The notes: generated by a model not told the origin, from the letters alone. Shown: positions 11,407 through 31,905, counted from the stretch's first letter. The stretch: DNA of 32,179 nucleotides from Candidatus Yanofskybacteria bacterium RIFCSPHIGHO2_01_FULL_44_17 (GCA_001794195.1 MGJI01000007.1:1-32179), one strand, 5' to 3'. Numbers and translations: made by a program.

Positions 11407-12437
11407 TGTCGAAAATCTTTAGCTGTAATTCGAGCTTTTTGCATAATCTCTTTCCTCCTTTTTAACATAGTTGGCAGCATTTTGGCAACCTTAAAAATTT
11501 CAAGAAACATGGGCGGTTCAAATAGTAAGAAGTAAGCCCAGAGTCTAATTTGACGCCAAAAAATATAAGGCCAATCACGCCATAAATTGACAGCGAAATC
11601 ATTTTTGATAATGGTAATTGTAGTGTTGCGCCAGTCCAGGCGGCGTTTAAACATAGGAACGGCTTTCCTAATTTTAATAAACTTTTTCCAGCCGCCAGCG
11701 ACCCCCTTAGTCGTCTTGCGGTCGTGATAGGCAATGACGCTGGGCGCGTAAACTTGTTTCCAACCGAATATCCTCATGCGCCACGGAAGATCAAGATCGT
11801 CGCCGTACCAGAAGTAGTCATGATCAACAATTTTATTGTTTTGATTTTTTAGACGGCAATCTTCGAGCGCACTTCTTCTGTAAATTGGCACCGCTCCCTC
11901 CGTCGCAAAGATTTCGCGCTGAGAATTATATTGTCCGCGATCTATCTCGCCATGCGCTATGTTCACTATTCTACGCGAGCGAAAAATCTCAAAACCTATC
12001 GTGTCCAGTGTCTCGTACTTAGTATTTTGTATAAAAGGAAATTCGTATTTATAAACCTTCGCCTGAAGTCCGCCTATAGTTTCATCTTGTTCCATAATCT
12101 CAACGGCGTTTTTGATGAAATCTTTATCCAGAACAACGTCAACCGATAAGGCCACAACATATTCACCGTGACTATATTTGAGCAGCTCTTCCTGCCCCGG
12201 CCACATGCCTAAATTTTTTTTTGATTGAATAAAATTAAACTTGAATTTCCGATTTACAATTTCCAATTTCCAGTTGTTTATTTTTTGAACGGTGTCGTCA
12301 GTCGAGGCGTTGTCCAAAATATTTACCTCGATTAATTCATGCGGGTGCGTTTGCGCTAAAACCGAATCCAGGCACTGACGAATGTCTTTTCCGCCATTAT
12401 AGACGACTAAGTTAATTGTAACTATTGAATTTGACAT
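11394..12437 (-). CDS. GT2 glycosyltransferase
   Basis: VYNG, ILDNASTD, SVDV, YFWYGDDLD. Confidence 0.92.
   Translation of the reverse strand: MSNSIVTINLVVYNGGKDIRQCLDSVLAQTHPHELIEVNILDNASTDDTVQKINNWKLEIVNRKFKFNFIQSKKNLGMWPGQEELLKYSHGEYVVALSVDVVLDKDFIKNAVEIMEQDETIGGLQAKVYKYEFPFIQNTKYETLDTIGFEIFRSRRIVNIAHGEIDRGQYNSQREIFATEGAVPIYRRSALEDCRLKNQNNKIVDHDYFWYGDDLDLPWRMRIFGWKQVYAPSVIAYHDRKTTKGVAGGWKKFIKIRKAVPMFKRRLDWRNTTITIIKNDFAVNLWRDWPYIFWRQIRLWAYFLLFEPPMFLEIFKVAKMLPTMLKRRKEIMQKARITAKDFRQWIR
12003..12030. repeat. Degenerate 7-nt tandem tract
   Basis: gtccagt gtctcgt acttagt attttgt. Confidence 0.5.
12244..12278. repeat. 7-nt tandem tract
   Basis: aatttcc gatttac aatttcc aatttcc agttgtt. Confidence 0.7.
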
Positions 12438-16577: not shown

Positions 16578-17708
16578 TTTTTCTACAAATTCAGCGATTT
16601 GTTGTTTAAATCTTTTTGCCGAGAATTTCTCGGCTGTTTTTTTTATAATTTCCGGATTATAGTTTTGCAGATTTTGTTTTAATATTCTTGCTCCATTTGC
16701 AAGTACCTCCTCAAGCGGGTCCTCAAAGAATTCTCCATTTACGCCCGCCTGTATATATTCTAGCGCTCCGCCGCGCGCTAAAGCCAGCACTGGCTTGCCG
16801 TAGCTCATGGCTTCGATGGGTGTAATGCCAAAATCTTCTTCCTGGGGCATAATAAATGCCATGCAATTAGCATAAAATTGCCGAACTACCTCGTCAGATT
16901 GATGGCCTAATAATTTTACATTTGCTCCGGCAAGTTTTTTTAGTTTTTTAAACTCCGGCCCTCCGCCTATTATTACCAGTGGCCAGCCAAGTTTATTGAA
17001 TGCCCGAATTGCGATGTCTATATTTTTATGCTTATATAGGCGGCTAACTATAAGGAAGTAATTGTTAGGTTTTTGACTATAGATTTTAGGTAGAACTACG
17101 GGTTGATGAGTAGCGACTGACGCCAATTCTACCGGCGGATAAATAATCGTAGATTCTCGGCCGTAATATTTTTTAATGCGCTGGTGGACGTTTTCTGAAA
17201 TCGCAATAAAATGATCAACTCTAGTCGAGGCGTTACGATCCCAGATGCGCAGTAGGTGCTGCAGTATTGCGGTTAGTATTCGCGGAGTATGGCCTGACTC
17301 TTTTTTATATTCAGCGTGCCAATCCCAGAGCTGCCTGGTCGGGCTATAACAATAACAAATGTGTTTGGTTCGCGGTTTAAGTATTAAACCCTTAGAGAAA
17401 GCAACTGAAGATGAAATAACCAGATCAAACTCACTTAAGTTAATCGATTCTATGGCCATCGGCATGAGCGGTGTAAGCAATTTATGACTGCCTAAAAATT
17501 TATAAAGTCTTTGCAAATTACTCGGCCTGATAACAGCTCTCGGTAAAAACCCGTCAGTGAATTTTCTGTTGTGAAAAAGAGTATAGATCGGTGCTTCCGG
17601 GAATAGCTCATGCAACGACTTAAGAGTATTTTCCGCCCCGCCCACGCCCAAAAGCCAATCATGGACAAGAGCGATTCTGGATCGCGGGCGAGCAAATGTA
17701 TTTGACAT
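16572..17708 (-). CDS. GT4 glycosyltransferase (WbaZ/mannosyltransferase-like)
   Basis: ALVHDWL..GGAE, EDFGITPIEAM. Confidence 0.93.
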   Translation of the reverse strand: MSNTFARPRSRIALVHDWLLGVGGAENTLKSLHELFPEAPIYTLFHNRKFTDGFLPRAVIRPSNLQRLYKFLGSHKLLTPLMPMAIESINLSEFDLVISSSVAFSKGLILKPRTKHICYCYSPTRQLWDWHAEYKKESGHTPRILTAILQHLLRIWDRNASTRVDHFIAISENVHQRIKKYYGRESTIIYPPVELASVATHQPVVLPKIYSQKPNNYFLIVSRLYKHKNIDIAIRAFNKLGWPLVIIGGGPEFKKLKKLAGANVKLLGHQSDEVVRQFYANCMAFIMPQEEDFGITPIEAMSYGKPVLALARGGALEYIQAGVNGEFFEDPLEEVLANGARILKQNLQNYNPEIIKKTAEKFSAKRFKQQIAEFVEKL

Positions 17709-17749
17709 CTATTCGATTTTAATATAGTATACTAATTGTGTTCTTTGAC
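17702..17749 (+). promoter_or_regulatory. sigma70 promoter plus boxA-like motif
   Basis: TTGACA(17702-17707)-N17-TAGTAT(17725-17730); TGTTCTTTGAC 17739-17749. Confidence 0.7.
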
Positions 17750-17770
17750 GAGTCTAATTAAGGGGTTGAC

Positions 17771-18085
17771 ATGGCTACAAAAAGAAGTAGTATGCTATTT
17801 AACGATTTCAACGAAGAGATTTTGGGTGCATTGTATTCGTGTAAAAATATAAATACGGCCCACATAATAGATATCGAGAAAGCTTGGGCGGTCATTACCG
17901 ATTATTTAAATACAAAAGAAATAATATTTTCCCGATCAGACTTGCAATCATCTCTGAAGTATTTAATTAACAACGGACCCGTACCTATTAGACTACTTTA
18001 CAATAACCCCTCGGATATCACGGTTTATCTGGACCTCGCGGCGCTGGAGTATAAAATAGGCTACCCGCACCTAGGTTCGGCCTAA
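17771..18085 (+). CDS. Hypothetical protein, 104 aa
   Basis: Promoter, AGGGG SD and downstream terminator. Confidence 0.7.
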   Translation: MATKRSSMLFNDFNEEILGALYSCKNINTAHIIDIEKAWAVITDYLNTKEIIFSRSDLQSSLKYLINNGPVPIRLLYNNPSDITVYLDLAALEYKIGYPHLGSA

Positions 18086-18107
18086 AATTTAACTGATAGC
18101 CATCTTC

Positions 18108-18132
18108 AAAGCGCATAAGCGCTTTTTGTTTT
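18108..18132 (+). terminator. Intrinsic terminator
   Basis: AAAGCGC-ataa-GCGCTTT then Ts. Confidence 0.65.
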
Positions 18133-18159
18133 ACGGCCGCCCGCTTAAGAGATAAACTT

Positions 18160-18354
18160 TAGTGAGCCCATTATCATTTCGAGAGTTCTGTCGAAGCCGA
18201 GCGGGCACGGTGTTGTGGTTTAATTTACGCAGAGCGAATGAAGTGAGCGGGTGGTAAATTATGCCACAACGAGCGAGGCGAGACAAAAAGTGCAGTGAAG
18301 CTTGCATCCCCGCTGGGGATGCTAAACAGAACGTCTCGAGAAATGATGAGGGGC
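18160..18354. repeat. ~190-bp branched palindromic repeat, copy 1 (after mreB stop)
   Basis: Core 18174-18349 matches 22354-22521 except 3 substitutions and one loop differing by 8 nt. Confidence 0.95.
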
Positions 18355-18367
18355 AGACAAACAAAGT

Positions 18368-19375
18368 TTATCTTTTAGCCAGAATATTCTTTTTATAAAC
18401 CTCCAAATTATCCAGCACAATGCCCGTTCCCTTGGCTACGCAAAGCAGCGGATCGTCGGCAATCCTGGCCGCTACGCCAGTAATCCTGGTAATTAAGACA
18501 TCTATATTTTTAAGAAGTGCTCCGCCGCCGGATATGACGATGCCGCGGTCCATTATATCAGAGCAAAGCTCAGGAGGTGTTTCCTGCAAGACATTTTTAA
18601 CAGTTTGTACTATCTCGCGAAGCTGTTCCTGCATGGCTTCGGTTATTTCATTTGATGACAGCTCTATTGTCTTAGGATAACCAGTTGTCAGGTCGCGTCC
18701 TCGGACATTTATTTTTTCTTCATTAGTCTGTTTAACGGCATTGGCTATGGCTATTTTAATTAACTCCGCCGTCCTTTCCCCTATTGCTAGACCGTGTTTC
18801 TTTTTAACATATTCAACAATTGCCTGATCAATTTTATTGCCTCCGACCCTAGCCGAATCCCAGCTGACTATTCCCCCAAGGCTTATAACCGCGACATCAG
18901 AGGTGCCGCCTCCAATATTTAATATAAGGTTGCCCACCGGGCTATTGATGGGCACCTTGGCCCCTATAGCCGCTAAAACGGGCTCTTTAACCAGATAGGC
19001 AGCCTTAGCCCCGGCATTTATCGTTGCCTCTATTACGGCACGACGTTCGGTGGATGTAATACCTGCCGGTACAGAAACCAAAATTTCAGGCTTGTAAAAC
19101 CCGAATCGCCCGACGGCCTTATTAATAAAATACTTGAGCATCGCCTCAGTAATACGATAATCGGCAATAACCCCGTCGCGCAGAGGTCGGGAGACCACAA
19201 TGCTGTCCGGGGCACGACCGAGCATTTCTTTGGCGTAATTACCAACGGCGATAATTTTATTGTCCAGGATTGATATGGCGACAACCGAAGGCTCATTTAT
19301 TACAAGTCCCTTGCCGGGCACAAAAACAAGCGTATTGGTTGTTCCTAGATCAATGCCGATTTTTTTTACAAACAT
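18368..19375 (-). CDS. mreB: Rod shape-determining protein MreB/Mbl
   Basis: IGIDLGT, NEPSVVA, RPLRDGVIAD, IGGGTS, SGGGALL. Confidence 0.97.
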   Translation of the reverse strand: MFVKKIGIDLGTTNTLVFVPGKGLVINEPSVVAISILDNKIIAVGNYAKEMLGRAPDSIVVSRPLRDGVIADYRITEAMLKYFINKAVGRFGFYKPEILVSVPAGITSTERRAVIEATINAGAKAAYLVKEPVLAAIGAKVPINSPVGNLILNIGGGTSDVAVISLGGIVSWDSARVGGNKIDQAIVEYVKKKHGLAIGERTAELIKIAIANAVKQTNEEKINVRGRDLTTGYPKTIELSSNEITEAMQEQLREIVQTVKNVLQETPPELCSDIMDRGIVISGGGALLKNIDVLITRITGVAARIADDPLLCVAKGTGIVLDNLEVYKKNILAKR

Positions 19376-19473
19376 AGATTTGTTAATATTTTTTACTCCG
19401 AATTCGTATATTGGCGACTTATAACAGCTTTGACAATATTTACAAAGTGATTAGATTAGTGCACAATAACGAG

Positions 19474-20361
19474 ATGAGGAAGAAAACAAGGCGCCTATTA
19501 TTTTTTACGGCAGTTCTACTGTTTGTTGTAATCGGTTGCGGAGCCGTGCTTTTTGCATTGGGCTATAAATATGATTTTGTTCATAATAAATTTTTAAAAA
19601 TTGGTTCTTTTGAACTTAAAACTAACGTGGCCGCAGAGGTTTATGTAAATGATGTGCTTGCCGGCGAGACTTCATTTTTATCCAATTCATTTTCAAAAAG
19701 TCGTTTGTTGCCCAGAACTTACACGGTAAGAGTTCAAAATGAAAATTATCAGTCATGGCAGAAGCTGGTAAAAGTAGAAGCCGGCTTTTTCATATATTTT
19801 CCAAGGGTTGTTCTGGTGCCTAAAAATTTCAACGAAGAAATTATCGCATCCAGCTCCATCTCGCTTATTTCTGTTAAGAGGTTTGAAACCGAAAGTGGGC
19901 TGGCAATTATCGGTAATAAGCAAAAGCTTGAATCAATAGACCTGAAGACTGGGGAAGTAAAGCCTTTCAAAGAAATCGTAAAAAAAGAGACAGCGCCACT
20001 CGTTGATTCGGACGGTTCTATTATTTCACCGGATAACACAAAAACAGCTTGGGCCAACGATCACGAGGTTTGGGTCAAGTGGCTTAAGGATTCTGATTAC
20101 CAGCCGTTTAAAAAGACGGGAGAAACTGAATTCGTAATACGTTTTTCACAAAAAGCAGACGATATGCAGTGGTACAAAGACTCAAGCCATTTGATTGTAA
20201 GCTCGGGTAGTATTTTAAAGTTTGTAGAGATTGACAAGCGTGGTGGAGTTAATATCAATGATATTTCTGCCATAAGCGGTCCGTTCTACTACGACCACGG
20301 CATCGATGCGATATTTAAGTTCGAAGGTAATAGGGTGGTCAGGATTGGCCTATCTTATTAG
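19474..20361 (+). CDS. Membrane-anchored PEGA-domain protein with beta-propeller-like C-terminus
   Basis: Basic N-terminus plus TM; A.VYVN..., LLP..Y.V.V....Y.SW.K; start moved to ATG 19474. Confidence 0.8.
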   Translation: MRKKTRRLLFFTAVLLFVVIGCGAVLFALGYKYDFVHNKFLKIGSFELKTNVAAEVYVNDVLAGETSFLSNSFSKSRLLPRTYTVRVQNENYQSWQKLVKVEAGFFIYFPRVVLVPKNFNEEIIASSSISLISVKRFETESGLAIIGNKQKLESIDLKTGEVKPFKEIVKKETAPLVDSDGSIISPDNTKTAWANDHEVWVKWLKDSDYQPFKKTGETEFVIRFSQKADDMQWYKDSSHLIVSSGSILKFVEIDKRGGVNINDISAISGPFYYDHGIDAIFKFEGNRVVRIGLSY

Positions 20362-20436
20362 TTAGCGTTCAAAGGTTTTAAAACCATACGCCAAGTCTGC
20401 GCATCTTATATTATTATACCTTAACAAGGAGTTGCC

Positions 20437-21123
20437 ATGAAACCCAGAAGCATCATATTTGTCCGCCACGCTCAATCTATAGGTAATATAATGACACAAG
20501 ATGAACGGGCTAATTATGAAATTCCAAACCATGCCTATCCGCTTACTGACATAGGTAGGCAGCAGGCCATCCTTACTGGAAAATATCTTAAAGATGAACT
20601 AAGTCCCAAACTCCCAGATATATTTTTGACCTCCACCTTCCTCAGGACTCAGATGACGATGGATCTAATACTTAAAGAGCTGCGAGCGCCAGTAAATTTA
20701 ACCCCGATTATTGACTCGCGCCTAGATGAAAAATGGGACGGAATTTTTCACGAACTTTCCAGGGCTGACGTAGAGAGATTATACCCCGAACAGATAAAGC
20801 TGAGGAAGCTTGTGGGATATTATCACCACCGAGCGCCTGGCGGTGAGAGCTGTCCAGACGTTGAGATTAAGATAAGAAACCTTCTCTCAGATCCAATTAT
20901 CGCTGGCAAGAGGCTTTTGGCTGTTGGTCATGGCAGGTGGTTCGTTATATTCCAAAAAGTCATTCACAATTTGAGTGTTGACGAGTTTTTGCAACTCAAA
21001 GATCAGGGTTCTGAAAACTGTTCTGTCACGGAATATTTATTTGAAAATATACCCAAGTCACCAAGTGAAAGCTTTGTTCCCTGGAAGGGATATTTGGAAG
21101 AGCAAAAAACTGAACTAGCCTAA
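20437..21123 (+). CDS. Histidine phosphatase (phosphoglycerate mutase family)
   Basis: FVRHAQS, LT..G..QA, RL.E, GGES, VGHG. Confidence 0.92.
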   Translation: MKPRSIIFVRHAQSIGNIMTQDERANYEIPNHAYPLTDIGRQQAILTGKYLKDELSPKLPDIFLTSTFLRTQMTMDLILKELRAPVNLTPIIDSRLDEKWDGIFHELSRADVERLYPEQIKLRKLVGYYHHRAPGGESCPDVEIKIRNLLSDPIIAGKRLLAVGHGRWFVIFQKVIHNLSVDEFLQLKDQGSENCSVTEYLFENIPKSPSESFVPWKGYLEEQKTELA

Positions 21124-21130
21124 ATTTTTT

Positions 21131-21152
21131 GCCGACTAATAATCGGCTTTTT
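21131..21152 (+). terminator. Intrinsic terminator
   Basis: GCCGA-ctaataa-TCGGC then Ts. Confidence 0.65.
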
Positions 21153-21154
21153 AG

Positions 21155-21212
21155 TTGACAGTTAATTTAAAAAATGCTAATCTTTTGTTGATCTTTGACA
21201 AGAATTTGGAGG
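21155..21212 (+). promoter_or_regulatory. sigma70 promoter, boxA-like motif and SD
   Basis: TTGACA(21155-21160)-N17-TAATCT(21178-21183); TGATCTTTGACAA 21189-21201; GGAGG 21208-21212. Confidence 0.72.
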
Positions 21213-21217
21213 ATTGG

Positions 21218-21628
21218 ATGTCGGCAAATGTGGTTTATATAATCACGGTAAGCATTGTTCTGATTATCGGTATTGCCTCGGCCTATCATTTTTTGCAAGC
21301 ATCACGTACAAAAAAAGAAATTGAAGAGCTTTACTCAATTCTGCGCGAACGTTCAGAAGAAATTGGAACAAAATTGTGCCAACTCCTGGTTGTTAATGGA
21401 TTGCAGTTTGAAAGATCGCAGCCAGAACCAGCCGTACATTCAATTATTGTAAGTAAAAACGGTTCTCCTGCGGCACGAGTATTGATAAATGTTGATCGAG
21501 GTTATACACCATTGGAAATTAGCTTTCCAAGTGGCCAAAATTATTACCGAGGCGTGTCGTTTGATAATTTGCCGCAAGCAGCTCTTGATTCAATTCTCGG
21601 TACTCTTAAAGAAGGAGGAAGAGCATGA
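21218..21628 (+). CDS. Hypothetical protein with N-terminal TM
   Basis: ATG 21218 after GGAGG; ATGA overlap with the next gene. Confidence 0.75.
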   Translation: MSANVVYIITVSIVLIIGIASAYHFLQASRTKKEIEELYSILRERSEEIGTKLCQLLVVNGLQFERSQPEPAVHSIIVSKNGSPAARVLINVDRGYTPLEISFPSGQNYYRGVSFDNLPQAALDSILGTLKEGGRA

Positions 21629-22104
21629 AAATGGAAACCTTGGGATCTGGCGAGACTATACTATTAATCCCAAAACACAGCCAAGAAGAATATCCAAACG
21701 AAACCGTTCCCGTCGTTGTTTTAAAAGGCTATTCAGACAGATATAATTCCGAAGTAAAAGAGATATACAGGGGCCCGCTATTTGGTGGGAATGTTGCAAG
21801 AGTAACTGGCTGCGCCTCTGCTGGCTATCTTGCTATGGCTGTCAGAGACACGACGCCTGGAAATGTATATTCTTGGTTAACCAAAGCCATCAAATCTCAA
21901 GACCACGACGGTTTAGCCGCAAAAGCCGAAGCCATAAAAACATGTGGCTTCCAAGATGTTCACGAGGATTTAAGAAATATTTGTCAGATAGTCTTACGCA
22001 GTGGCGTTATCGCTAAGGTAAGATATAACTTTATAGATAAAATAGGGTTAAAAAGATTGGAATACTGCCTTATGACGATTGCTACTGAAGGGAGACGAGC
22101 ATGA
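21625..22104 (+). CDS. Hypothetical protein, 159 aa
   Basis: AGGAGG SD; ATGA-coupled on both sides. Confidence 0.75.
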   Translation: MKMETLGSGETILLIPKHSQEEYPNETVPVVVLKGYSDRYNSEVKEIYRGPLFGGNVARVTGCASAGYLAMAVRDTTPGNVYSWLTKAIKSQDHDGLAAKAEAIKTCGFQDVHEDLRNICQIVLRSGVIAKVRYNFIDKIGLKRLEYCLMTIATEGRRA

Positions 22105-22268
22105 CAGAAAAAACAAAAAGGCACACACTGAGGACTCTAAAACCGAGAAAGGCTAAAAAGAACATAATGGACGATGAGCCAATTATAATAGTAGTCGGCA
22201 GTCAACCAACTCTATTGGCGGTTGATAAAGAAGGCAAAACCCACCGAATTACAAAAAGATTTGTTTAA
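22101..22268 (+). CDS. Basic 55-aa protein MTEKTKRH...RITKRFV (not in ORF track)
   Basis: ATGA overlap, GGGAG SD, ends just before the terminator. Confidence 0.55.
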   Translation: MTEKTKRHTLRTLKPRKAKKNIMDDEPIIIVVGSQPTLLAVDKEGKTHRITKRFV

Positions 22269-22283
22269 TAAACAAATCCTGAC

Positions 22284-22307
22284 GCCGAGGAAACTCGGCT
22301 TTTTTTT
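22284..22307 (+). terminator. Intrinsic terminator
   Basis: GCCGAG-gaaa-CTCGGC then 8 T. Confidence 0.85.
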
Positions 22308-22339
22308 ATGTTTTTTAATCGCAATGAGCAAAAAGATGC

Positions 22340-22526
22340 TAGTGAGCCCCTTGTCATTTCGAGAGTTCTGTCGAAGCCGAGCGGGCACGGTGTTGTGGTT
22401 TAATTTACGCAGAGCAAAACGGGTGGTAAATTATGCCACAACGAGCGAGGCGAGACAAAAAGTGCAGTGATGCTTGCATCCCCGCTGGGGATGCCAAACG
22501 GAACGTCTCGAGAAATGATGAATGGC
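22340..22526. repeat. ~190-bp branched palindromic repeat, copy 2 (after rpsI stop)
   Basis: Direct copy of 18160-18354. Confidence 0.95.
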
Positions 22527-22529
22527 GAG

Positions 22530-23135
22530 CTATCTTTTGGCCCACTGCGGAGCCTTTCTGGCTTTTTTGAGACCGTATTTGCGTCTTTCCTTTTCTCGCG
22601 AATCACGAGTAAGATAGCCCGCCTTACGAAGTTTTTTTGAAAAATTAATGTCGAAAAGAGTTAATGCTCGGCTTAAACCAAGTCTAACTGCATCTGCCTG
22701 TCCATGCGCTCCCCCTCCGCTCACCTTAACCGTAGCCTTGAAACGATTAAGCGACTTTAATTTTTTTAGAGGAGCTTCGATAATGTTTTGCAACGGTATG
22801 GCCTTGAAGTATTCATAATAAGGCTTACTGTTTATAGTGATTATCGCCTTTTCTTCGGAAGGCTCTGGATCTGTTGATTTTTTGGTGTAGACACGAACTC
22901 TTGCCGTCGCTTCCTTGCGCCTGCCGACGGCTTCAAAGTACTTTTCAACCGCATCGCTAGATGCTTTTATTTCTACCGCTTGACTCGTTTCTGTTAACTC
23001 CTGAGACACTAACTCCTCCGCTGGGGTAACGGCTTGTATTATTTCTTTTGTGTCTTCAAGTTTTTTCTTAGGCTTAACTTTAGTAATCGTTGAAGCCCTC
23101 GGCTTTTTAGTTGTAGTTTTTTTTGTAACCATCAT
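22530..23135 (-). CDS. rpsI: 30S ribosomal protein S9 with N-terminal extension
   Basis: GRRKEATARV, GGG.HGQADA, LTRDSR.KERRKYG. Confidence 0.97.
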   Translation of the reverse strand: MMVTKKTTTKKPRASTITKVKPKKKLEDTKEIIQAVTPAEELVSQELTETSQAVEIKASSDAVEKYFEAVGRRKEATARVRVYTKKSTDPEPSEEKAIITINSKPYYEYFKAIPLQNIIEAPLKKLKSLNRFKATVKVSGGGAHGQADAVRLGLSRALTLFDINFSKKLRKAGYLTRDSREKERRKYGLKKARKAPQWAKR

Positions 23136-23482
23136 TGTAGGAATTCGATAGTCGCCATTTTTGACCCGTCGCTTATACGAGACGGCAAATTAATTATTCT
23201 TGTATAGCCACCGTGTCGCTCCGGGAATCTTTCAACGATCTCATTGTGCAACTTTTTAGCATATGGGCGTCCAAGTTCCGCGGAAAGAAGTTTGAATGAT
23301 GCCAAGTTTTTATCTTTAGCCTTGGTTACTAACTTCTCAATATATGGACGAAGACTTTTGGCCTTGGCTTGGGTAGTATTTATTTTAGTGTTCAAAATTA
23401 AAGCACGCGCAAGATCACGCAATAATTCTTTGCGCTGCTTAGTTTCTCTTCCGAATTTTCTATTTTTTTTACCGTGCCTCAT
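23132..23482 (-). CDS. rplQ: 50S ribosomal protein L17
   Basis: MRHG, TT.AKAK, GGYTRI. Confidence 0.97.
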   Translation of the reverse strand: MRHGKKNRKFGRETKQRKELLRDLARALILNTKINTTQAKAKSLRPYIEKLVTKAKDKNLASFKLLSAELGRPYAKKLHNEIVERFPERHGGYTRIINLPSRISDGSKMATIEFLQ

Positions 23483-30538: not shown

Positions 30539-31905
30539 GGAAATTGTTTGGCCTCTACTTCAATTTTAGCGCCGATGGCGGCTAATTTTTCCGGAATATT
30601 TGCATATCCCCTCTCTAAATATTCAATACCGGAGATACAACTAGTTCCTTCGGCAATTAATGCCGCAATAATGTAAGCGAACCCGGCTCTAAGGTCAGGA
30701 ATGTGGATTTTTGATCCTGAAAGTTTGCTGGGGCCGCTAATCACACAACTGTGAAAATAATTTTTATCGTGGAAACGGCACGAAGCCCCCAAACAGAATG
30801 GCAGTAAATCTGTTTTAGCCCCCATCGTGTTGAGATCAGAAGTATAATCAAAACGTTTTTCGTAAACAGTCTCATGTATTACCGAAGTACCATTTGCTTG
30901 AGTGAGGGCAACCGCCAAGGGCTGTTGCCAATCTGTCATAAATCCAGGATGAACATCAGTTTCAATATGCACCGGCTGTATATTTTGTTTACTCTGGAAG
31001 AACATCATTCCGTCCGCACAGCATTCATATCCACCTCCGGCTAAACTAAATTTATCCAAAAAAGATGCCATATGCTCATCCGAGGCGTTTCTTATAAAAA
31101 TGCGGCCATTTGTAGCAAGCGCTAAGCTTGCAAAAGACGCTGCCTCTATTCTGTCTGGTATGGTATGGTGACTTGCTCCGTTCAAGCCCTCGACCCCGTT
31201 TATGGTAATGCATCGGTCGCCGTCTTTTCTGATTTTGGCGCCCATTTTTTGTAAAAAAATTATCGTGTCCCAAACTTCCGGTTCGATTGCCGCATTAAAT
31301 ATCGAGGTCACGCCTTTGGCTAAAACAGCGGCCAAGATTATATTTTCAGTCGCACCAACACTGGGATAGGGCAATACTATGTTAATTATCCCCTGTCCAG
31401 GTATGGAACTCGGCAGTACTAAACCTTTGCCAGTGGGCCCATTACCCATAGCGTCATAATCCTTATTGTCAGGAGAGCTTATTCTGGCTCCCATTGATTC
31501 GAGGGCGAGAAGGTGGAAATCTACCGGCCGGGAGCCAATTTTACAGCCACCTGGAATTGGTACGCTAGCCCGGCCGACTCTGTGCAGCAGCGGTCCAAGA
31601 AGTAAAATCGGTATTCGATTATAGCGTTGGAACCTCGGATTAACTCTTGCATATTTTATTTCCAACGTCTGGATTTTTAGGGTGTGCTCATCTAGCCACT
31701 CATAGACGCTGCCTAGCTCTCCTAGCATTTCTAGAACTTTGTCTATTTCCTTAATTTTGGGCACGTTGTTGAAAATACACGGTTCCGTAGTCAGAAGCGA
31801 TGCCACGAGCTGCTTGGTTATGGCGTTCTTGGCTCCAGTTACGCTTACTTCACCAGATAATGGAGCTTTGCCTGTTATTTTATAATATCTTCTGTCTGGA
31901 AGCAT
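30529..31905 (-). CDS. murA: UDP-N-acetylglucosamine 1-carboxyvinyltransferase
   Basis: GAKNA, PGGCKIGSRPVDFH, PSVGATEN, PDRIEA, HPGFMTD, DLRAG, ERGY. Confidence 0.96.
   Translation of the reverse strand: MLPDRRYYKITGKAPLSGEVSVTGAKNAITKQLVASLLTTEPCIFNNVPKIKEIDKVLEMLGELGSVYEWLDEHTLKIQTLEIKYARVNPRFQRYNRIPILLLGPLLHRVGRASVPIPGGCKIGSRPVDFHLLALESMGARISSPDNKDYDAMGNGPTGKGLVLPSSIPGQGIINIVLPYPSVGATENIILAAVLAKGVTSIFNAAIEPEVWDTIIFLQKMGAKIRKDGDRCITINGVEGLNGASHHTIPDRIEAASFASLALATNGRIFIRNASDEHMASFLDKFSLAGGGYECCADGMMFFQSKQNIQPVHIETDVHPGFMTDWQQPLAVALTQANGTSVIHETVYEKRFDYTSDLNTMGAKTDLLPFCLGASCRFHDKNYFHSCVISGPSKLSGSKIHIPDLRAGFAYIIAALIAEGTSCISGIEYLERGYANIPEKLAAIGAKIEVEAKQFPPP

Follow-up and report, generated by a model that had tools for sequence, protein, structure and literature searches.

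A mobile hairpin family behind housekeeping stop codons of Patescibacteria, flanked at most sites by inverted copies of the gene ends

The locus

The window, a stretch of 32,179 nucleotides from Candidatus Yanofskybacteria bacterium RIFCSPHIGHO2_01_FULL_44_17, carries two copies of a repeat, here termed type A, both of them 3' of minus-strand genes. The host of copy 1 is mreB (18368-19375, minus strand; Pfam PF06723, E = 1.5e-131, 438 bits), which ends ..NILAKR-TAA, and that of copy 2 is rpsI, encoding ribosomal protein S9 (22530-23135, minus strand; PF00380, E = 7e-37). MreB and S9 both end AKR-stop, and this is their native end in relatives that do not carry type A. Copy 1 occupies 18160-18358 (minus strand; delimited by repeat alignment and the consensus fold) and on the gene strand runs from ..GTCTGCCCCTCATCATTTCTCGAG to CTCTCGAAATGATAATGGGCTCACTA. 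Copy 2 (22340-22529, minus strand; repeat alignment) has the gene-side end TAGCTCGCC, which overlaps the rpsI stop codon TAG. A preliminary description of this DNA had reported two near-identical copies in the same orientation after the mreB and rpsI stops, differing mainly in a loop, and the repeat search bears this out: 18160-18238 aligns with 22340-22418 at 96% and 18248-18354 with 22420-22526 at 95%, the only large difference being an 8-nt indel in the apical loop.

Each copy lies between a gene end, F, and an inverted copy of that end, F', on the side away from the gene. At mreB, F (18363-18377, minus strand) consists of the last codons, the stop and 5 nt beyond and pairs with F' as judged by duplex energy; F' (18146-18160, minus strand), which reads TAAGAGATAAACTTT on the plus strand, matches the gene end at 14 of 15 positions. 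The outer stem formed by AGATAAACTTT (18150-18160) with AAAGTTTATCT (18363-18373) comprises 11 perfect base pairs and spans the stop codon (18368-18370). At rpsI the outer stem joins AAAAGATGCT (22331-22340) to AGCtATCTTTT (22528-22538). Copy-specific outer stems over the gene ends had been described at these coordinates and are found there, and the rpsI pairing reaches further, to 18 nt with 15 matches between F' (22320-22337, minus strand), the inverted last six codons of the gene, and F (22532-22549, minus strand), in which the sequence gives those codons as P Q W A K R. A terminator-like hairpin common to a convergent open reading frame (18108-18125, plus strand) stands beyond F' of copy 1, and the sequence places an intrinsic-terminator-like hairpin of the convergent upstream gene (22284-22299, plus strand) just outside F' of copy 2.

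Family, hosts and mobility

Type A is a family of non-coding DNA hairpins of about 190 bases (range about 187-223 nt) with 24 distinct copies in a narrow clade of Patescibacteria; the hosts are ultra-small groundwater bacteria. Orthologous copies are not independent, and the distinct sites number some 13-14. Matches were obtained in six of 61 related genomes and a few metagenome contigs, and the end motif places the element in five of the 26 family genomes, a patchy spread. The 674-kb window genome (G000) holds three copies and the congener G003 at least nine, many of them at contig ends. There is no conserved open reading frame, and the copies are short, non-coding, multi-copy and bounded by terminal inverted repeats, as is usual for a MITE.

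The element is mobile, as is evident from its patchy distribution over genomes, near-identical copies at unrelated loci and empty orthologous sites. Three pairs of copies at non-homologous loci, each pair within one genome or lineage, share 98.2% (dnaB and dnaK), 99.4% (L068 and L064) and 98% identity (L066 and pnp), and in congeners the mreB, rpsI, dnaB and gyrA sites occur without a type A copy. The two window copies are each other's nearest relatives within the family (91.6%). The searches yielded no near-identical strain with a polymorphic empty site, no enzyme, no intermediate and no match to a phage or plasmid. Of the Rfam hits in the window, only RMST_8 overlaps a type A copy, and its 18.3 bits (E = 5.3) fall below the gathering score of 80.

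Type A takes one position and one orientation relative to housekeeping genes, just after the stop codon. Of 22 copies, 20 are preceded by an open frame (60-711 codons) on the same strand whose stop falls some 0-32 nt, or in a single case 70 nt, short of one particular end of the element; the remaining two are a copy in reversed context and a copy truncated at a contig end. Pfam searches confirm seven of the hosts (MreB, S9, DnaB, GyrA, DnaK, PNPase and the pyrophosphatase ppa), to which an R3H protein can be added. The idea that AAAAGATA is the target is not supported, since elsewhere the element comes after gene ends of quite another sequence, among them ..TATCTGATTTT (dnaB), ..GGTGGTCTGA (gyrA), ..GAAAAATAA (dnaK) and ..GAAATAG (pnp).

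Fold of the core

In the type A alignment 97.6% of the cells are paired in the consensus fold, and 13 pairs have changed on both sides, compared with 4.8 +/- 1.2 in shuffled alignments (none of 500 shuffles scored as high). The ends GCTCGCCCCTCATCATTTC and GAAATGA.AAGGGGCTCGC pair with one another. A terminal helix, GC-TC-GCCCC...GGGGC-TC-GC, is conserved, and its shell GCTCGCCCC...GGGGCTCGC is common to a 42-nt hairpin family of the window genome. The GCTCG/CTCGC end motifs are present in all copies; in three of them C-G has become T-A with pairing kept (alignment read by eye). The internal loops are 100% conserved, and the apical loop varies in length, not in multiples of three. The internal stems proposed earlier hold in that they belong to the consensus fold and show compensatory changes, with the exception of the GCC-GA-GC/GC-GA-GGC pairing, which does not appear in the RNAalifold prediction and, being invariant, is beyond the reach of a covariation test. 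Of the two strands, the one antisense to the host genes gives the core a somewhat better fold, with 65 G-U and 9 A-C cells as against 40 and 16 on the gene strand.

Pairing of the flanks

At most sites the copy has a far flank of its own that repeats the host gene end in inverted form. Over the 19 complete copies, drawn from several genomes, the cognate flanks have a mean duplex energy of -16.8 kcal/mol, compared with -9.3 (sd 4.0) for 320 non-cognate pairs (Mann-Whitney p = 1.3e-4). Pairing is strong in 12 copies and weak, with at most about 8 bp, in the other seven. The flanks of window copies 1 and 2 give -17.8 and -23.8 kcal/mol, respectively, and no non-cognate pair was as low (0 of 32 and 0 of 34). 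Stem length differs between copies, from some 4 nt to some 38 nt; A and T predominate, and the pairing extends 6-12 codons into the coding sequence. At gyrA the pairing is imperfect end to end; its duplex energy is the lowest of all copies, and the alignment of F with F' scores 20, compared with a 95th percentile of 19 and a maximum of 27 after shuffling.

The two arms co-vary. Each of the dnaB ends GGCATATAAT, TATTTGATTTT, TATCTGATTTT and GAATATCTGATTTTT is mirrored by the F' of its own genome at the orthologous position. At dnaB, non-coding DNA beyond the stop is also matched, over 22-28 nt.

Sites without the element

Congener sites that carry no hairpin element at mreB, dnaB, gyrA or rpsI keep the gene end, and the inverted copy is absent. 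The terminator that stands beyond F' at mreB of the window comes immediately after the mreB stop in G005 and G006; in G005 the dnaB stop overlaps the recR start; at gyrA five congeners have the same gene end. The inverted copy is therefore new DNA. The preliminary description had called for a comparison with empty mreB and rpsI sites, and relatives without the element indeed retain the AKR-stop end alone. Its central claim, that each copy is matched by an inverted copy of the adjoining gene end, is borne out both by this absence and by the far greater stability of cognate flanks.

Search for a mobilizing enzyme

A recombinase (HUH, IS110-type or other) bounded by type A ends, for which a search had been advised, was not found, either with the left-end pattern in the 26 family genomes or at the GIY-YIG and Y1_Tnp loci. 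The left-end pattern matches known type A copies only, at 16 places in five of these 26 genomes (incomplete MAGs), and so gives no parent insertion sequence; nor did the 26 genomes contain a larger form of the element. Y1_Tnp occurs in 15 of the 26 and is absent from the type A carriers G002 and G016, and neither its presence nor that of RVT_1 tracks type A, the observation that bears on a kinship with IS200/IS605-derived elements or group II introns. RAYT-like genes lie in nine of 11 stretches examined (in G000, G001, G003, G005, G006, G014 and G024), flanked by different hairpins of their own; in the other two no RAYT-like gene was picked out, and none of the stretches holds a cognate RAYT gene flanked by type A. 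Each of the five type A genomes searched for GIY-YIG genes has small ones, and none of 23 GIY-YIG loci has type A ends beside the nuclease gene.

Origin of the inverted copy

The explanation that we rate best, and to which we give about an even chance, is that type A is a REPIN- or MITE-like palindromic mobile element and that template-switch (fold-back) synthesis, copying the gene end, extends its hairpin outward. A non-autonomous, hairpin-forming element would lodge one way round directly behind housekeeping stop codons. Given the conserved terminal helix, the 3' end of the folded hairpin on the gene strand would adjoin the last codons of the gene, and a template switch at the hairpin, by fold-back or snap-back priming, would copy the gene end, inverted, onto the far side of the element. 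The palindrome would lengthen outward, with recurrent switching keeping both arms alike; only extensions that add to or overwrite the non-coding side would survive, which would explain why the copy is always on the side that faces away from the gene. On this view the stem that closes over the stop codon would not have been selected for but would be a side effect of events in the DNA.

We infer this mechanism, its timing (at insertion or later) and the existence of an enzyme that moves the element. As to timing, the dnaK copy of G003 is young (98% identical to the dnaB copy) and has flank pairing of only about 6 bp, so the inverted copy is not always made at insertion. We count the variable stem length in favour of fold-back copying, as it is unlike a duplication made by a transposase. 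Template switching between imperfect inverted-repeat arms is reported both to homogenize and to expand the arms (PMC8604942, PMC13100816, PMC7202029, PMC3820800). We count against fold-back copying the seven weak flanks among the 19 and the gyrA alignment, which the shuffle control shows to be weak. Several copies have unpaired bases separating the element end from F', which is unexpected under simple priming from the base of the hairpin. The dependence among orthologous copies, and the failure of the searches to yield an enzyme, an intermediate or a polymorphic empty site, weigh on the same side.

The main rival is that gene-end hairpins were there beforehand, as suggested by dnaB, where species differ in the element that lies within one and the same closing stem. 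Hairpins overlapping the stop, either terminators or older footprints, would have come first; type A and other families would have inserted into their loops, so that the flanks were inverted repeats from the start, and selection would then have kept the stems as terminator or 3'-end stems. We consider this rather unlikely. In its favour, the dnaB stem, which encloses type A in three lineages and other nested hairpin elements in G000, G004 and G006, is common, with its downstream DNA, to G003 and G004, whose interiors are unrelated, only one of them being type A; the nesting goes further in G000 and G006, in a 'Russian doll' of hairpins. At mreB, rpsI and dnaK, too, the hairpin family that fills the site differs from congener to congener, and unoccupied gene-end hairpins occur, with a 20-bp stem and the stop codon in its loop at rpsI of G006 and 7 bp at mreB of L065. 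Terminators overlapping stop codons are enriched about threefold in the window genome (29 of 600 gene ends compared with 8-11 of 600 intragenic controls), a T-rich run follows about five of 11 strong F' arms (sequences read by eye), and some REPs are reported to lie inside palindromes that are never found unoccupied (Di Nocera et al., 2013; PMC3733652). Set against this are the element-free sites, which show no such hairpin at mreB of G005 and G006, at dnaB of G005 and at five gyrA genes; the composition and reach of the stems, AT-rich and 6-12 codons into coding sequence, which is unlike the listed terminators of the genome; and the stem mismatches, which have no wobble bias (five G-U on one strand, five on the other and 14 transversions).

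Less likely again is an undescribed mode of transposition, in which a single-stranded DNA hairpin would be joined behind the gene and its own 3' end would prime the fold-back, leaving as signature an inverted and not a direct target duplication. A strand-specific single-stranded DNA nuclease acting at the GC-TC-GCCCC / GGGGC-TC-GC shell might start the event, the invariant internal loops might be the binding site of a partner, and sister families might behave in the same way.

A functional mRNA 3' end or antisense RNA, selected to sequester the stop codon, stabilize the 3' end or terminate transcription, is in our opinion improbable. The fixed orientation to highly expressed housekeeping genes, the covarying stems with their 100% conserved internal loops and the compensatory changes in the outer stem between orthologues would all suit such a role, and REPs located 3' of genes are reported to work, probably, at the RNA level (PMC3733652). 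The distribution does not suit it: only five of the 26 family genomes carry type A, congeners do without it at the same genes, and copies at unrelated loci are 98-99% identical. Nor do the strands, since the G-U excess of the core lies antisense to the host gene, the flank stems lack wobble bias and a terminator-like T run on the gene strand was not found in the window copies. Of the two alternatives first offered, then, a non-coding, multi-copy, patchy element belonging to no Rfam family stands, whereas a stop-hiding RNA structure finds little support.

That the variable far flank travels with the element and picks targets by base pairing, making the complementarity the cause of site choice (programmable homing), is very improbable: the nearest-relative window copies do lie behind two genes sharing AAAAGATA and some pairs, such as gyrA, are imperfect end to end, but the 98% identical dnaB and dnaK copies of G003 have unrelated far flanks, a carried guide cannot account for the 22-28 nt of match with the non-coding stretch behind the dnaB stop, and F' keeps its orthologous position while changing with the gene end of each species.

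Comparison with known systems

REP and REPIN elements are associated with RAYT (Y1 HUH) transposases. Type A, as an extragenic palindrome downstream of genes that can fold as one long hairpin, fits the same description, and its ends, often (G/C/T)TAG...CTA(C/G/A), resemble a head-to-head REP doublet. REPs are likewise non-coding palindromes, found for the most part 3' of coding regions where the neighbouring genes run in the same direction or converge, and the terminus of GTAG-tagged REPs can supply a TAG stop (PMC3733652). The type A terminus does this for rpsI of the window, mreB of G004 and the L073 gene. Type A differs from REPs in its length of about 190 nt, with a conserved branched interior of 130 nt, and in an enclosing palindrome that follows no family consensus but is peculiar to each copy, its sequence coming from the host gene end.

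Correia/NEMIS MITEs are short, non-autonomous and multi-copy, have terminal inverted repeats and form long hairpins near genes, probably co-transcribed with them, and type A shares all of these features. Unlike a MITE, it has no consistent direct target duplication (TA...TA in about four of 20 copies; alignment read by eye); its flanks are inverted and of variable length, its orientation to the upstream gene is fixed and no parent insertion sequence was found in the 26 family genomes. The integron attC site is also an imperfect palindrome directly after a stop codon, in fixed orientation and with its structured strand complementary to the coding strand, as in type A. An attC site has conserved outer boxes and a variable centre, however, and type A shows the opposite and has chromosomal housekeeping genes as hosts.

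Fold-back copying, our preferred reading, has its closest parallel in quasi-palindrome mutagenesis, in which template switching within one molecule makes the arms of an imperfect inverted repeat alike and longer; one abstract among these reports links the process with highly transcribed DNA (PMC7202029, PMC8604942, PMC13100816, PMC3820800). Those papers treat point or short multi-nucleotide changes at fixed quasi-palindromes, whereas here the process would operate systematically around a hairpin that moves, taking in as much as some 38 nt of the host gene end. The Ssn GIY-YIG single-stranded DNA nucleases have NTS/SRM repeats (Chenal et al., 2025; PMC11893778), which like type A are strand-specific hairpins that recur many times in the neighbourhood of genes; unlike those repeats, type A has its ends at the nuclease gene in none of the 23 GIY-YIG loci.

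Implications

A far flank that is an inverted copy of the adjoining gene end is an unusual signature, most probably due to fold-back DNA copying. If our reading is correct, the part played by mobile hairpins in the smallest bacterial genomes goes beyond occupying intergenic DNA: time and again they remodel essential operons (mreB, rpsI, dnaB, gyrA and dnaK) at the 3' end, creating long palindromes that include the stop codon, and such sites would be hotspots where element families replace one another or nest in one another. It would also carry a warning for annotation, in that 'structured 3' UTR RNAs' with copy-specific closing stems could arise without selection. Were the insertion chemistry itself to make the inverted copy, this would be a new signature of transposition; under fold-back copying, the family would offer a natural case of palindrome growth by template switching over evolutionary time.

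The repeat family and its hosts

Type A, the non-coding hairpin element of ~190 nt considered here, was located twice in the window by repeat comparison: at 18160–18358, beyond the stop codon of mreB (18368–19375; Pfam MreB_Mbl, E = 1.5e-131), and at 22340–22529, beyond that of rpsI (22530–23135; Pfam Ribosomal_S9). The preliminary description of two near-identical repeats directly behind these stops is borne out, with both genes on the minus strand. The copies share 95–96% identity except for an 8-nt indel in the apical loop. MreB and S9 do both terminate in AKR-stop, as had been noted, and the copy-specific outer stems lie exactly where they had been placed; the rpsI stem proved longer than described, with 15 of 18 positions paired over the last six codons.

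Contig 21 of the window's genome (674 kb in 31 contigs) carries a third copy, and contig 6 a 20-nt fragment. A search with the core of the repeat, suggested earlier for this genome and its relatives, revealed a multi-copy family of 24 distinct copies after removal of duplicates. Matches occur in only six of 61 related genomes, all of one family, and the congener G003 holds at least nine copies, many at contig ends. The 20-nt invariant core was found in 13 stretches when one genome per species was searched, nearly all in a recurring handful of Patescibacteria assemblies, and in 14 metagenome stretches; collections of phage records, plasmid records and viral contigs gave zero matches. The repeat had not been recognised as a named family, and an Rfam search of 17900–22800 on both strands, judged by E-value, returned chance-level matches only.

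The closest relative of a copy is a copy in the same genome (91.6% for the window pair, 98.2% for the dnaB and dnaK copies of G003 and 98–99% for two further pairs), which shows recent copying. In four DNA sequencing runs assessed over 17500–23200 the contigs end at the repeats, and neither a junction bypassing the element nor a near-isogenic empty site was seen.

Placement is highly regular. For 20 of the 22 copies, an open frame of 60–711 codons on the same strand terminates ~0–32 nt ahead of one and the same element end, the distance being 70 nt in one copy that bears a secondary insertion. Two copies depart from this: the contig-21 copy of the window's genome, which adjoins a gene start in reversed context, and one truncated by a contig end. 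With orthologous sites collapsed there are ~14 sites, 13 in the usual arrangement. Hosts named by Pfam are MreB, S9, DnaB, GyrA, DnaK, PNPase, inorganic pyrophosphatase and an R3H protein; one more looks, on inspection, like a candidate transketolase.

Structure of the element

The 20 complete copies align to give a long branched hairpin. The consensus fold has an energy of −60.0 kcal/mol and 13 compensatory pairs on the + strand of the window, and −48.2 kcal/mol and seven such pairs on the gene strand. In the + strand structure 97.6% of cells are paired (33–51% in slid controls) and 13 pairs are altered on both sides, compared with 4.8 ± 1.2 after shuffling (no shuffle out of 500 reached 13). 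This strand has 65 G-U cells to 9 A-C cells, and the gene strand's own structure 40 to 16, which somewhat favours the strand that is antisense relative to the host genes; folding of both strands is what a DNA palindrome would be expected to show. The apical loop is variable in length, with compensating hairpins of its own, and two internal loops are invariant throughout the 20 copies.

A promoter-like site, TTGTCT-17-(TG)CATAAT, directed away from the host gene, is located within the most conserved segment of the core (minus strand, 18258–18286 and 22430–22458). We rejected TTGTCT-17-CATAAT as a conserved feature of type A since the −10 hexamer deviates in nine of 20 copies.

At the termini lies a conserved shell, GC-TC-GCCCC ... 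GGGGC-TC-GC, common to other hairpin families in these genomes. A target-site duplication was considered for the GCTCG/CTCGC ends and discarded, as departures at one end have no direct-sense counterpart at the other. Shells of the form GCTCGCCCC...GGGGCTCGC also terminate other hairpin families in the window's genome (contig 27, 3494–3535; contig 17, 38429–38505) and at L012 on contig 4 of the related genome G016, where a divergent type A variant is itself nested in a shell of this kind.

Complementarity of the flanks

Complementarity between the two flanks of each copy, observed initially in the window, was assessed for 19 complete copies by the energy of the duplex formed between the 35-nt flanks once the conserved termini had been removed. 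Duplex energies were preferred to local or anchored alignments, which are a poor measure, their non-cognate scores being raised by internal loops and by orthologous copies. Cognate flanks average −16.8 kcal/mol and 320 non-cognate pairs, drawn from different copies with orthologous copies left out, −9.3 kcal/mol (s.d. 4.0; Mann–Whitney p = 1.3e-4). The pairing is thus general, though not universal: it is clear in 12 copies, for eight of which no non-cognate pair is equally stable, and weak (at most ~8 bp) in seven. Stem length ranges between about 6 and about 38 nt, the stop codon being included; those at dnaB span 22–28 nt and take in non-coding bases past the stop.

Across the window's genome it is rare for a gene end to have a near-exact or exact inverted copy of its last 12 nt in the next 450 nt (4 of 593, versus 0–1 in controls). 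When gene ends were compared with the following 500 nt, the window mreB and rpsI and the G003 gyrA did not exceed the shuffled maximum, a comparison of low power in AT-rich DNA.

Origin of the inverted copy

Comparison with element-free mreB sites, as the preliminary description had proposed, was informative. In the congeners G005 and G006 a terminator hairpin comes straight after the mreB stop, with no inverted copy; the same terminator is found in the window past the element and the inverted copy. The gyrA end of G003 is common to five congeners that have neither element nor inverted copy. The inverted copy is absent at dnaB of G001, and G005 has the start of recR overlapping the dnaB stop. 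MreB ends in AKR or AKK and S9 in QWAKR in all congeners examined, so the shared AKR-stop was not supplied by type A. It is the inverted copy that is new DNA; the gene end is native. G001, G002 and G006 offer no clean empty counterpart to the young dnaK copy of G003, which has flank pairing of only ~6 bp: other elements occupy the site in the first two, and the gene end differs in the third.

We excluded the possibility that the host gene ends inside an arm of type A. A contrasting family in the window's genome, with arms ATGAATCCCGTACGAAGTAG...CTACTTCGTACGGGATGAA (contig 6, minus strand, stop at 31147; contig 8, 5571), has one copy whose arm contains the last codons and TAG stop of a gene.

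Downstream of dnaB the far arm occupies an orthologous position in the window's genome, G002, G003, G004, G006 and a metagenome lineage, and each matches the dnaB end of its own genome (GGCATATAAT, TATTTGATTTT, TATCTGATTTT or GAATATCTGATTTTT), with synonymous codon differences and differences in the stop codon mirrored in the arm. The interior of this stem holds type A in three lineages and other nested hairpin elements in the window's genome, G004 and G006. Insertion of type A into already existing hairpins would account for the shared dnaB stem and the nesting; it is contradicted by the element-free sites and we consider it unlikely.

The flank stems of 12 copies comprise 229 matches, 14 transversions and 32 gap columns, with five G-U-type mismatches on the gene strand and five on the other. 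With no wobble bias, these counts speak against selection acting on an RNA helix and for templated copying at the DNA level. That type A and its closing stem form a functional RNA element has little support and is improbable. The suggestion that the far flank picks targets by base pairing has little support and is very improbable indeed.

In the window's genome the dnaB nest ends, ~115 nt downstream of the gene, in a 42-nt perfect hairpin with the type A-like GCTCGCCCC...GGGGCTCGC shell. A pattern search with its arm through 105 genomes of this taxonomic order found it in only two, one being the window's genome, with no nuclease cassette.

Gene ends as hotspots

The ends of mreB, rpsI and dnaK are hotspots, carrying different hairpin families in different congeners. 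Behind the dnaK stop in G001 and G002 (loci L146 and L149) lie large composite palindromic elements that have no relation to type A. A third family (ends ..CTCGCCTTCTAATTTTC / GAAAATCA..GGCAAG, core ATGAATGACGAAAATCA) lies behind both mreB and rpsI of G002 (L031, L039); it also occurs in the window's genome (L004, contig 6, about 11800–12100), adjoining a 20-nt type A end fragment. At rpsI of G006 (L041) and mreB of L065 (~1000–1080) the functional gene end is followed immediately by its own inverted copy, then small hairpins and then a decayed direct copy of the old end; an insertion immediately upstream of the old stop seems to have duplicated the last codons. Four copies of a further repeat, GCTCGCCATATTACCTTTTGAGAACTTCGCCTTGCCCCAG, are present in the window's genome (contig 1, 1270; contig 9, 7633; contig 26, 5267; contig 31, 14835); in G002 (L046) the left part of this repeat is joined to a type A copy.

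Gene-end hairpins with no element inside do occur. Perfect hairpins overlap the stop codon in 29 of 600 long ORFs, compared with 8–11 of 600 intragenic control positions, and most look like ordinary terminators.

Candidate partner enzymes

A left-end pattern search for an autonomous or larger form of type A in 26 family genomes returned known copies only. No HUH/Y1 recombinase gene bounded by the same ends, as suggested for a search in the preliminary description, was found in the genomes searched: Y1_Tnp genes show no association and the RAYT-like genes carry other hairpins. Neither GIY-YIG nor reverse transcriptase (RVT_1) genes are associated with type A in the genomes searched. The RAYT-like Y1 genes (220–310 aa) occur in most congeners (contig 6, 24365–24583 in the window's genome; L136–L143, L114), each with a short perfect hairpin of its own on either side; this hairpin varies from genome to genome. 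Small GIY-YIG nuclease genes (88–110 aa; L070, L071, L075, L080; in the window's genome and G002) lie beside tRNA genes with their own hairpins on both sides.

Comparison with known elements and a model

The closest kinds of element are REP/REPIN elements and MITEs. Type A lacks the direct target duplication that, with a parent IS, defines MITEs; neither a parent IS nor the cognate RAYT that defines REP/REPIN elements was found in the genomes searched. GTAG-type REPs are, like type A, placed behind genes; the published account describes them as able to donate a TAG stop and places some inside palindromes never found empty (PMC3733652). The enclosing palindrome of type A differs in being copy-specific and derived from the host gene, a case for which we found no counterpart in the literature searched; nor did that literature describe the type A family or inverted target copies around bacterial palindromic elements.

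The best-supported reading, to which we attach middling confidence, is of a REPIN/MITE-like palindromic mobile element with its hairpin extended outward by intramolecular template switching, in an order of events that we infer. Published accounts describe how the arms of inverted repeats are homogenised and expanded by template switching (PMC8604942, PMC13100816, PMC7202029, PMC3820800). For type A, the 3' end of the folded element abuts the gene end on the gene strand; the gene end could then act as template for synthesis from the folded element, yielding the inverted copy, and repeated template switching would homogenise the arms.
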